Shown here: positions 27,480 through 29,048 of the stretch, piece after piece | How positions within the stretch are numbered: position 1 is the stretch's first letter | How the letters are laid out: each line of letters starts with the position of its first letter | Sequence record: PQ571291 | DNA: 50,066 nt | Reading direction: 5' to 3' (one strand) | From: Escherichia phage EF3-1 | Position numbers and translations under genes: made by a program | Notes under the pieces: model-generated | The model's input: only the letters and a program-made list of their open reading frames with translations | Told to the model about the DNA's origin: nothing | The model's database searches: none

Positions 27480-29048
27480 TTAACCCATCAGTCTAGGATT
27501 GATGAAAACAATATCATCAATGCGGCAAGTGTAATTCATCTCTTCGAGCGTGATCAGCAGGCTATCGATTCGCTCAGATACTTTCTGTTGACCGTTGAAC
27601 GGAGTAACGTTCCGGCACTTTGCAACGATGCTATGAATAGGAGCGCGCCCTTTATTCTTCTTTGCGATCTCAGTGATAACATCAATCAGTTTGCGAGATT
27701 CAGCCTCATCACCAGCATACCCGGCAGCGCTTGCAGACGACAGATAAGTTCTGGAAAGCTCATTGAAGATCATGATTGCTTCCTGCATCGTTTCAAGATC
27801 AATCTCACGGTTGGAACGGTTCGGTGATTCACCCTCCCAATTCTTGATCGTGTGGAGAACTGAAGCAATACGCAAGGCGTGCTTATCGAACTTGCCGAGA
27901 TGACCGCGTAGCATTGAGTGAGAGTATTTCCCACCTGCGGCGAAATCCGGTTCCATCGCCTGACGCGCAAGGTTTAATTCACGCATAGCATTACGGCTTA
28001 CAGAGAGAACAACGTTATCCTCTTTCATGATGTTGTGCACGAGTCGATAATATTTACTCACCAATCCTCGATCGACTTCCTTATACAGCGCATCACCATT
28101 TTCATCACAAAGAATACGAGTACCTAAAAGCGGTTCCTCACGAACTAAAAGGAAACGCTCAGATACACCGATGCCTCGTTGGCCTGCGTCCATGATACCC
28201 TTGATTGTTTCATCTTGCGCAATAACGCAGATGGAACCGACCGGGCAAAGTGATAGGTTGTTATCCTGGTTGGAACGCGCTACCTCCATGTGGTTTTTAT
28301 CCCACGCCTTAAGGATAAGTTCACTGTTTGACTTCTTGTCTGAACCTCCATAAGTCAGGCCGAGCAATGTATTGATTGCTGTCGCCTCATCAGAGATTAC
28401 GGAGAAGTGACCTTGAACAGCCGCCACCTTCGCTAGACCTTCAGGTGTAGGATCTGATACCGCGAAAACAATATCAGCCATCTTCTTGATCTTCTCTTCC
28501 AGTTTTTCTTTGTCCTCGTATAGCGCTGCCGTCGTGTTACCCTTCGGGTCGTTTTTAATTTCCTTCTCGACCTGACGTAGCTGACTGGTTAAACGGATAC
28601 GTTCCTTTTTTCGCTCTTCATTCAGTCGCTGAATCTCTGCGCGCATAGGCGTAATCGCTGCGGAGTTAATCGCAGATTTACCTGTTGACGGTGGCTGGCT
28701 GATTACCATGTAAAGAGCGGTGGGTTGTTCTTCTCCGTGATATTGCACCCAAAACTTCCCGAGCATCGCTGCTGAGATGCACCCAATGAAATGAGCGTAC
28801 GCAGACGAAACAGGGAACTGTACAGACTCGGCCTTTGCTTTTGCATATTCGAATACTAGGTTATCGCCACCTAACGAAATCAGAGGGAACTTATCGTTTC
28901 CGCTATTGATATCGATCGGATCTTGCCAAAATGAAACTGAGTCACCATAGCTGTTTTCACGAATTGCGATCGCCACCGGATTAACTCCAGTGCTATTGGC
29001 GATCTCAATAATCTGTTGGTAATTCAGTTTTGGCTTAATATTAAACAT
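27480..29048 (-). CDS. P-loop NTPase, DnaB/DUF3987-like (putative replication ATPase, 522 aa)
   Basis: ATG at 29048 (M22 of track ORF) after SD AAGGAG; Walker A-like QPPSTGKSA and Walker B-like VISDEATA. Confidence 0.55.
   Translation of the reverse strand: MFNIKPKLNYQQIIEIANSTGVNPVAIAIRENSYGDSVSFWQDPIDINSGNDKFPLISLGGDNLVFEYAKAKAESVQFPVSSAYAHFIGCISAAMLGKFWVQYHGEEQPTALYMVISQPPSTGKSAINSAAITPMRAEIQRLNEERKKERIRLTSQLRQVEKEIKNDPKGNTTAALYEDKEKLEEKIKKMADIVFAVSDPTPEGLAKVAAVQGHFSVISDEATAINTLLGLTYGGSDKKSNSELILKAWDKNHMEVARSNQDNNLSLCPVGSICVIAQDETIKGIMDAGQRGIGVSERFLLVREEPLLGTRILCDENGDALYKEVDRGLVSKYYRLVHNIMKEDNVVLSVSRNAMRELNLARQAMEPDFAAGGKYSHSMLRGHLGKFDKHALRIASVLHTIKNWEGESPNRSNREIDLETMQEAIMIFNELSRTYLSSASAAGYAGDEAESRKLIDVITEIAKKNKGRAPIHSIVAKCRNVTPFNGQQKVSERIDSLLITLEEMNYTCRIDDIVFINPRLMG

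Follow-up and report, generated by a model that had tools for sequence, protein, structure and literature searches.

The DUF3987 gene of phage EF3-1

Escherichia phage EF3-1 is a Tunavirus and a relative of phage T1. The 50,066-nucleotide (nt) stretch of its DNA analysed here (record PQ571291; hereafter the window) contains a block of minus-strand genes at 26956..32821, and we characterized one gene of this block, here called gene 9, that encodes a 522-amino-acid (aa) ATPase of the DUF3987 family. A preliminary description, made from the letters of the sequence, had placed a 522-aa gene on the leftward strand at 27480-29048 and had put its start 22 codons into the open reading frame (ORF), behind an AAGGAG. 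Both claims held. The ORF listing gives a minus-strand frame at 27480..29111, 543 aa when counted from TTG, in which the ATG at 29048 is codon 22 and yields the 522-aa protein. This ATG was taken as the right start because phage T1 has the same leader and ATG, the equivalent methionine is nearly invariant as the start across homologues in a 31-sequence alignment, and the 21-codon extension upstream is filled by a copy of an intergenic repeat (29101-29123). The gene and its leader comprise the following features.

27480..29048, minus strand: coding sequence of a 522-aa DUF3987-family AAA+ ATPase, ortholog of T1 ST9 (ORF, Pfam, PHROG, identity to T1)
27480-27482, minus strand: stop codon of gene 9
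29058..29063, minus strand: Shine-Dalgarno sequence AAGGAG, 9 nt before the ATG (direct sequence reading; same in T1)
29101..29123 (match 29105-29121), minus strand: copy of a 21-nt T1-like intergenic repeat, between the stop codon of the upstream gene and the start of gene 9

Homologues occur in 925 phage records, mostly of Klebsiella, Escherichia, Salmonella and Shigella phages with genomes of ~45-52 kb, and with at least 80% coverage in 898 phage records, which places gene 9 far beyond a chance reading frame. In some records they appear as 'hypothetical protein', in others as 'DNA helicase' or 'putative helicase'. Phage vB_EcoS_Chapo encodes a protein with 100% identity to that of EF3-1, and T1 ST9 (YP_003936.1), named 'DNA helicase' in RefSeq, is identical at 520 of 522 positions (99.6%). 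At the nucleotide level, the ~3 kb surrounding gene 9 shows 96% identity to Shigella phages phi2457T and Sfin-3 and 92-96% to many other Tunavirus genomes; the whole window aligns with the T1 record at ~83-92% identity and is circularly permuted relative to it. T1 ST9 and its Drexlerviridae orthologs (PHROG 2373) share with gene 9 their length, leader, start and position between the lysis cassette and small leftward genes. T1 differs in having an HNH endonuclease gene, ST8, just upstream of the helicase gene, which EF3-1 lacks: window positions 29122-29127 correspond to T1 46160-46622, where T1 has ~463 extra bases that make up ST8 and the window has the repeat only. From this alignment, ST8 looks like a homing-endonuclease insertion polymorphism.

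The preliminary description had taken the protein for a replication-type ATPase, perhaps of the DUF3987 family, and had proposed a search with profile hidden Markov models. Pfam DUF3987 (PF13148) was matched with E 3e-42 (145.6 bits against a cutoff of 27), residues 78-432 aligning with positions 2-355 of the 364-position model. PHROG 2373 'DNA helicase' was matched with E 8e-234, and the last ~85 residues also match PHROG 7327. At E ≤ 1 the Pfam scan returned nothing besides DUF3987; DnaB_C (PF03796), MCM (PF00493) and other P-loop families were absent, and no unrelated, non-DNA ATPase family, named beforehand as the result that would speak against the proposal, was matched. The NCBIfam scan of the protein gave no match. 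Searches of PDB sequences at E ≤ 10, with the single protein (phmmer) or with a 31-sequence profile, returned no MCM chain and nothing meaningful. A marginal PADLOC match to LmuB (E 0.003, 13.7 bits) was dismissed as noise. The broad assignment is thus supported by DUF3987 and PHROG 2373, and the earlier interpretation as a whole in part. A family-wide profile search of 1.84 billion cluster representatives (50% identity clusters) returned 5836 representatives with a DUF3987 module at E ≤ 1e-3. Gene, family and probable role are already present in databases and the literature and are therefore already known.

Predicted fold and catalytic motifs

Motif conservation was read from an alignment of 31 homologues that reaches down to 34% identity, and an AlphaFold2 model from the 31-sequence alignment is confident, with a mean predicted local distance difference test score (pLDDT) of 89.1 and a predicted template modelling score (pTM) of 0.87. 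Domains and motifs of the protein, from the N terminus, are as follows.

28758..29048, minus strand: N-terminal all-helical region, aa 1-97 (DSSP of the model, no strands)
28134..28757, minus strand: AAA+ ATPase core, aa 98-305 (model)
28674..28697, minus strand: Walker A or P-loop QPPSTGKS, aa 118-125 (sequence; alignment)
28386..28400, minus strand: Walker B VISDE, aa 217-221 (end of strand 214-219 in the model)
28152..28163, minus strand: SERF motif, aa 296-299, candidate arginine finger (S296, E297 and R298 invariant; precedes strand 299-303)
27714..28133, minus strand: helical lid, aa 306-445, with invariant R381, G382, G385, K386 and D388, a candidate sensor 2 (alignment, model)
27483..27713, minus strand: C-terminal winged-helix domain, aa 446-522 (model)

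The sequence QPPSTGKSAINSA occupies residues 118-130, and in the model the P-loop comes after strand 113-117. Residues Q118, P119, P120, S121, G123 and K124, together with E221 of Walker B, are invariant in the 31 homologues. The preliminary description had pointed to a Walker B-like VISDEATA about 100 aa after Walker A; this was confirmed at residues 217-224, the Walker B Asp lying 96 residues past the Walker A Lys. Its 'DnaB-like Walker A context' fared less well: the local PS.GK[ST] resemblance is real, but DnaB_C is not matched and the predicted fold is not RecA/DnaB-like. Further into the core, a beta-hairpin (254-256 / 265-267) with invariant R258 stands ahead of strand 270-277, which runs into an invariant QDE at 278-280, and invariant S296-E297-R298-F299 lies immediately before strand 299-303. 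SERF resembles the SRF motif of MCM and appears to sit where MCM has this arginine finger, an equivalence that we infer from position in the model; R258 may likewise mark a counterpart of the pre-sensor-1 beta-hairpin of MCM, and R381 a sensor 2. In a subclade of relatives at 35-48% identity, D220 (28389-28391) is replaced by Ala (ISAEA); E221 remains invariant, and so does the D279-E280 pair with which the next strand terminates. Metal coordination in the family may depart from the textbook hhhhDE pattern, to judge from the alignment.

Comparison of the model with PDB structures by Foldseek returned MCM2-7 or archaeal MCM subunits as essentially all of the top 40 matches (best E 2.6e-5), with Rep40 of adeno-associated virus (AAV) and poxvirus E5 only lower in the list. 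On this ranking, MCM is the nearest structural relative of the core, which is an AAA+ module and not the RecA-type module of DnaB; a RecA-type core fold was considered and rejected on the same ranking. The winged helix resembles those of ORC, Cdc6 and MCM in structure comparison. Structural similarity to the Cch (SCCmec) and SaPI primase-helicases, which belong to the DUF927 family, is clearly below that to MCM. A long helical hairpin (aa ~122-189), 43% charged, is inserted directly after the P-loop and distinguishes the EF3-1 protein from archaeal and eukaryotic MCM. The PDB sequence and profile searches found no solved DUF3987 structure. That the product of gene 9 is a DUF3987 AAA+ ATPase with an MCM-like core is close to certain.

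A proposed replicative helicase

DUF3987 modules of relatives are repeatedly joined to primase parts. A Pfam domain scan covered ten DUF3987 relatives; many relatives are 750-970 aa long, with the module in the C-terminal half. One (P0158; 31% identity over query residues 39-520) carries a DnaG CHC2 zinc ribbon and DUF6371 ahead of DUF3987, another (P0185; 31% identity over query residues 68-519) the primase-binding N-terminal domain of DnaB, and two more a Prim-Pol (P0227) or a PriCT_2 domain (P0237). Likewise, matches in a viral structure library include many proteins of 700-900 aa in which DUF3987 is joined to a PrimPol or TOPRIM primase. By hhalign, homology to P0185 begins at query residue ~37, so that its DnaB N-terminal domain replaces the first three short helices of the EF3-1 protein. 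The first ~36 residues constitute a variable module, in whose place relatives have this domain or a whole primase, and conservation of aa 1-60 is 0.41. Two metagenomic phage contigs encode relatives with 35% identity; in both, one or two small genes separate the DUF3987 gene from a homologue of the primase gene (BLASTP E 3e-46 and 1e-13), and genes for an SF2 helicase, a RecE-like protein, ERF or DUF1351, and the single-stranded DNA-binding protein (SSB) adjoin the DUF3987 gene too.

Among relatives, association with a primase takes the form of fusion at 31% identity and of adjacency at 35%, and the two genes are not adjacent in EF3-1 (~8 kb). The preliminary description had set the gene apart from the helicase/primase module. 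This is correct for EF3-1; as a general feature it does not stand, since the gene lies near the primase in the 35%-identical relatives and the separation seen in the window is a Tunavirus rearrangement of gene order. The replication genes that bear on the role of gene 9 are listed below.

18490..19425, minus strand: DNA primase with a P4-alpha/T7-type zinc ribbon (Pfam Zn_Ribbon_Prim E 5.6e-16; PHROG 510)
20034..22052, plus strand: RadD-like superfamily 2 (SF2) helicase (Pfam ResIII and Helicase_C; PDB RadD 6jde E 4.8e-40)
22049-22465, plus strand: VRR-NUC nuclease gene, overlapping the end of the SF2 gene (domain scan)

Gene 9 lies ~5.4 kb from the SF2 gene and ~8 kb from the primase gene, with VRR-NUC, Dam, exonuclease and lysis cassette genes between it and the primase module. 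The primase, with which the helicase probably works, aligns with no more than positions 6-316 of PHROG 510 'DNA primase', a profile of 667 positions. The zinc ribbon is its sole Pfam match; neither a TOPRIM nor an archaeo-eukaryotic primase (AEP) catalytic domain was found in it by Pfam or NCBIfam, nor a PDB relative by sequence, and the T1 record likens its counterpart to alpha proteins of the P4 type. The SF2 protein matches NCBIfam RadD with E 2.4e-59, below the equivalog cutoff. It is not a ring helicase and is probably a motor of recombination or repair, not the fork helicase; with VRR-NUC it looks like a recombination/fork-processing pair. A RecE-like nuclease, ERF, SSB (16228-16650) and a Cro-like regulator are also encoded in the window.

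Earlier work on the family points the same way. Kazlauskas et al. (2016) placed phage DUF3987 proteins in superfamily 6 (SF6) as predicted replicative helicases, linked them to MCM by HHsearch, and described a winged helix-turn-helix at the C terminus and frequent proximity to AEP or DnaG primases; the N4 member dns is essential for replication (PMC4889955). The EF3-1 protein matches the features of these SF6 helicases (Mycobacterium phage Corndog, N4 dns): MCM relatedness, a C-terminal winged helix and a primase link. It differs from N4 dns, which has a C-terminal AEP primase domain, in standing alone, and the Tunavirus gene is not adjacent to that of the primase. Kazlauskas et al. (2018) counted DUF3987 as one of the domains that stand in for a helicase in fusions with AEP primases (PMC5862659). 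Our literature search found only one biochemical study of a DUF3987 protein, which in 2025 described AgaPH, a PriCT-DUF3987 protein of a mobile element carrying a prokaryotic Argonaute (pAgo), as an oligomeric 5'->3' helicase that binds its primase-polymerase and whose activity depends on ATP or dATP and on both Walker motifs, A and B, being intact (PMC11724360). AgaPH and the EF3-1 protein share DUF3987, Walker A and B and a small C-terminal domain, a likeness drawn at the level of the family. AgaPH has an N-terminal PriCT domain and an AEP primase-polymerase as partner, whereas the EF3-1 protein has a short helical N terminus and would work with a zinc-ribbon P4-alpha-type primase and host DNA polymerase III (Pol III). 

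A second comparison is with the alpha protein of P4, which combines primase, helicase and winged helix in one polypeptide; EF3-1 has the same set of functions split over two genes. The EF3-1 primase is of P4-alpha type by its Zn_Ribbon_Prim domain, its match to the N-terminal half of PHROG 510 and the alpha likeness noted in the T1 record. The helicase modules differ, that of P4 alpha belonging to superfamily 3 (SF3) and that of EF3-1 being DUF3987/MCM-like.

We consider gene 9 to be probably the phage's own replicative fork helicase. A fork helicase is a more likely role for the protein than that of an extra ATPase because relatives keep the gene in synteny with primases and the only other helicase, that of the primase module, is RadD-like. 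The gene 9 product (gp9) would form a ring, probably a hexamer, around single-stranded DNA and use ATP to unwind the fork; if AgaPH is a guide, it probably moves 5'->3'. The P4-alpha-type primase, the product of a gene of its own, would dock on the helicase, possibly via the variable N-terminal helical module, and the winged helix may aid binding to DNA or to an origin. Synthesis would be performed by host Pol III, because the phage encodes no polymerase; no DNA polymerase gene was seen among the scanned replication genes or in the T1 and LeonhardEuler annotations. Across relatives no dedicated loader gene is conserved beside the helicase gene. The genes flanking it in the window (27068-27475 and 29125-29541) are without a match in Pfam or PADLOC and belong only to PHROGs whose function is unknown, and the idea of a conserved loader or partner gene was dropped because the counterparts of these flanking genes differ in distant relatives.

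Rather tentatively, and with the balance tilted against the picture as a whole, these parts could be assembled into a T1-type hybrid replisome not yet described biochemically. Here an MCM-fold ring would move 5'->3' on the lagging strand, a movement shared with DnaB, and would load itself at an origin or D-loop via the winged helix. It would recruit the P4-alpha-type primase through a swappable N-terminal module, couple directly to the host Pol III holoenzyme, act independently of host DnaB, DnaC and DnaG, and offer the charged hairpin as a docking site for partners.

Several points weigh against assigning gp9 to the fork. Its likeness to MCM is limited to the AAA+ core, covering 236-272 of 522 residues at template modelling (TM) scores of 0.3-0.38 and 10-13% identity, and the Pfam and PDB sequence and profile searches gave no sequence-level match to MCM or to any PDB chain. 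Where MCM (PF00493) has an N-terminal OB-fold/zinc collar, the EF3-1 protein has ~95 helical residues instead. Because one subclade of relatives has Ala in place of the Walker B Asp, the active site may not be fully described. In EF3-1, gene 9 and the primase gene belong to different operons. MCM translocates 3'->5', a polarity opposite to the 5'->3' reported for the DUF3987 protein AgaPH, and the direction of movement of gp9 is uncertain for this reason. ComM and MCM8/9, AAA+ relatives from the same clade, act in recombination and not at forks. Finally, the literature yielded no experiment on T1 ST9 or the EF3-1 protein, and nothing on host dna-gene requirements of T1, on gene 9 escape mutants or on 'gp9'.

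Of the other roles considered, that of a combined initiator and helicase survives best, and we regard it as possible though doubtful. The winged helix would recognise the origin, and the protein would melt it and load itself, like SF3 initiators or P4 alpha; such a role is plausible and would extend, not exclude, that of a replicative helicase. The P4 alpha protein binds its origin via a C-terminal winged helix, and the ORC-, Cdc6- and MCM-like winged helix of gp9 would suit an initiator. Neither the neighbours nor the replication module showed a recognisable helicase loader or an initiator of the O, DnaA or Rep type, and no partner gene is conserved on either flank across relatives. Moreover, the T1 primase covers only the N-terminal half of PHROG 510 and is likened to P4-type alpha, so that the helicase and origin-binding parts could come in trans. 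Set against this, no origin is known for T1-like phages, and an origin search near the gene found no iterons next to it and a GC skew that only follows the direction of transcription. Winged helices in MCM and other AAA+ proteins also mediate protein-protein contacts, and replication may start from recombination intermediates, RecE, ERF and SSB being encoded, in which case origin binding would be unneeded.

A role as a branch-migration motor in recombination or repair, like ComM or MCM8/9, is improbable. Such a motor would aid concatemer formation while host DnaB or the phage SF2 protein unwinds the fork, and it would fit a phage with a large recombination toolkit (RecE-like, ERF, SSB, RadD-like, VRR-NUC) in which the gene stands outside the primase operon. 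The RadD-like and VRR-NUC pair, however, already fills the place of a recombination motor. Fusions of relatives to primases and to the primase-docking domain of DnaB fit a fork helicase, as does the position of the gene beside the primase in distant relatives, and AgaPH stimulates strand-displacement synthesis by its primase-polymerase (PMC11724360). 

There is very little to recommend a role unconnected with DNA, as a chaperone-like or host-takeover AAA+ ATPase of the kind of MoxR/RavA or magnesium chelatase: structures of the MoxR/RavA/chelatase type score clearly below 13 MCM matches, Pfam AAA_3, AAA_5, MoxR and Mg_chelatase are unmatched at E ≤ 1, and winged helix, primase fusions and synteny indicate DNA replication. 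A DnaB-like helicase of superfamily 4 (SF4) with a RecA fold is hardly credible, its support being the local likeness of PPSTGKS to the RPSMGKT-type P-loop of DnaB and the DnaB N-terminal domain of P0185, which in that relative is joined to DUF3987 instead of the RecA-type C-terminal domain, and DnaB_C being absent from the Pfam matches.

As a replicative helicase, gp9 would complete a coherent minimal replisome for polymerase-less phages, consisting of an MCM-like helicase, a P4-alpha-type primase, SSB and host Pol III. Recent genome papers on the T1 family pass over gene 9 when they treat replication: the replication helicase is given there as the RadD-like SF2 protein, and gene 9 stays hypothetical (PMC11447400). 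The reannotation of phage TLS names only the primase and the SF2 helicase (PMC11447400). The AAS23 paper lists three 'helicases' without choosing among them (PMC8004638), and a 2026 paper about the sensing of phage replication proteins by Avs deals with RecA-type helicases, not DUF3987. The value of the present assignment is mainly annotation hygiene, and the replisome proposed would not surprise specialists in phage replication. T1-like Drexlerviridae are common laboratory contaminants and candidates for phage therapy, and gene 9, in a tractable coliphage, is a convenient model for a family of more than 5800 clusters at 50% identity and could address how an MCM-like fold gives 5'->3' unwinding.

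Repeats and variable segments around the gene

The repeat copy upstream of gene 9 belongs to a 21-nt repeat of phages TLS, T1 and Rtp; the paper on TLS counts its function among the questions still open (PMC11447400). The pattern ATAGCAC-N-TTG(T/C)TAA has 23 copies in the window at three or fewer mismatches, against ~2 expected by chance. Further copies include the following.

29605-29621, minus strand: repeat copy
31236-31252, minus strand: repeat copy
31653-31669, minus strand: repeat copy
32117-32133, minus strand: repeat copy
22462-22478, plus strand: repeat copy
34245-34261, plus strand: repeat copy
36040-36056, plus strand: repeat copy

Copies lie at gene junctions and are always oriented with the local genes. 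Their core is an imperfect palindrome, TAGCA-N5-TG(C/T)TA, and in the leftward operon the repeat stands ~22 nt upstream of an extended -10-like TGnTAnnnT. Judged by this geometry, the repeat may be bound by a dimeric regulator, at a position of about -45 relative to weak promoters. A scan for promoters and terminators gave no enrichment over shuffled sequences. The repeats met in the origin search were the known 21-nt repeat and features of the divergent intergenic region.

That region, 32822-33713, is the largest non-coding stretch seen in 24-34 kb and lies between divergent operons. Within it lie AT-rich TATATATA repeats (33409-33540), a 24-nt sequence present as two direct copies 30 bp apart (33184-33237), and a perfect inverted repeat with 16-nt arms (33337-33352 / 33587-33602) separated by 234 nt. 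Position 1 of the T1 record, the start of the terminal repeat, maps to ~33192. Packaging probably starts in this region, which probably also carries early promoters and may include a replication origin.

Between the Dam gene and the lysis cassette, a plus-strand gene at 24331-25482 encodes a 383-aa protein that matches PHROG 704 'DNA repair exonuclease' with E 5e-157 and has no Pfam or NCBIfam match. At the other side of gene 9, the segment 31217-33191, which includes a minus-strand ORF of 234 aa at 32117-32821, has no counterpart in the T1 record. The equivalent of this ORF in LeonhardEuler is annotated as a Dcm-like C5-cytosine methyltransferase, and with this segment the leftward operon appears to end in variable cargo of an anti-restriction kind.

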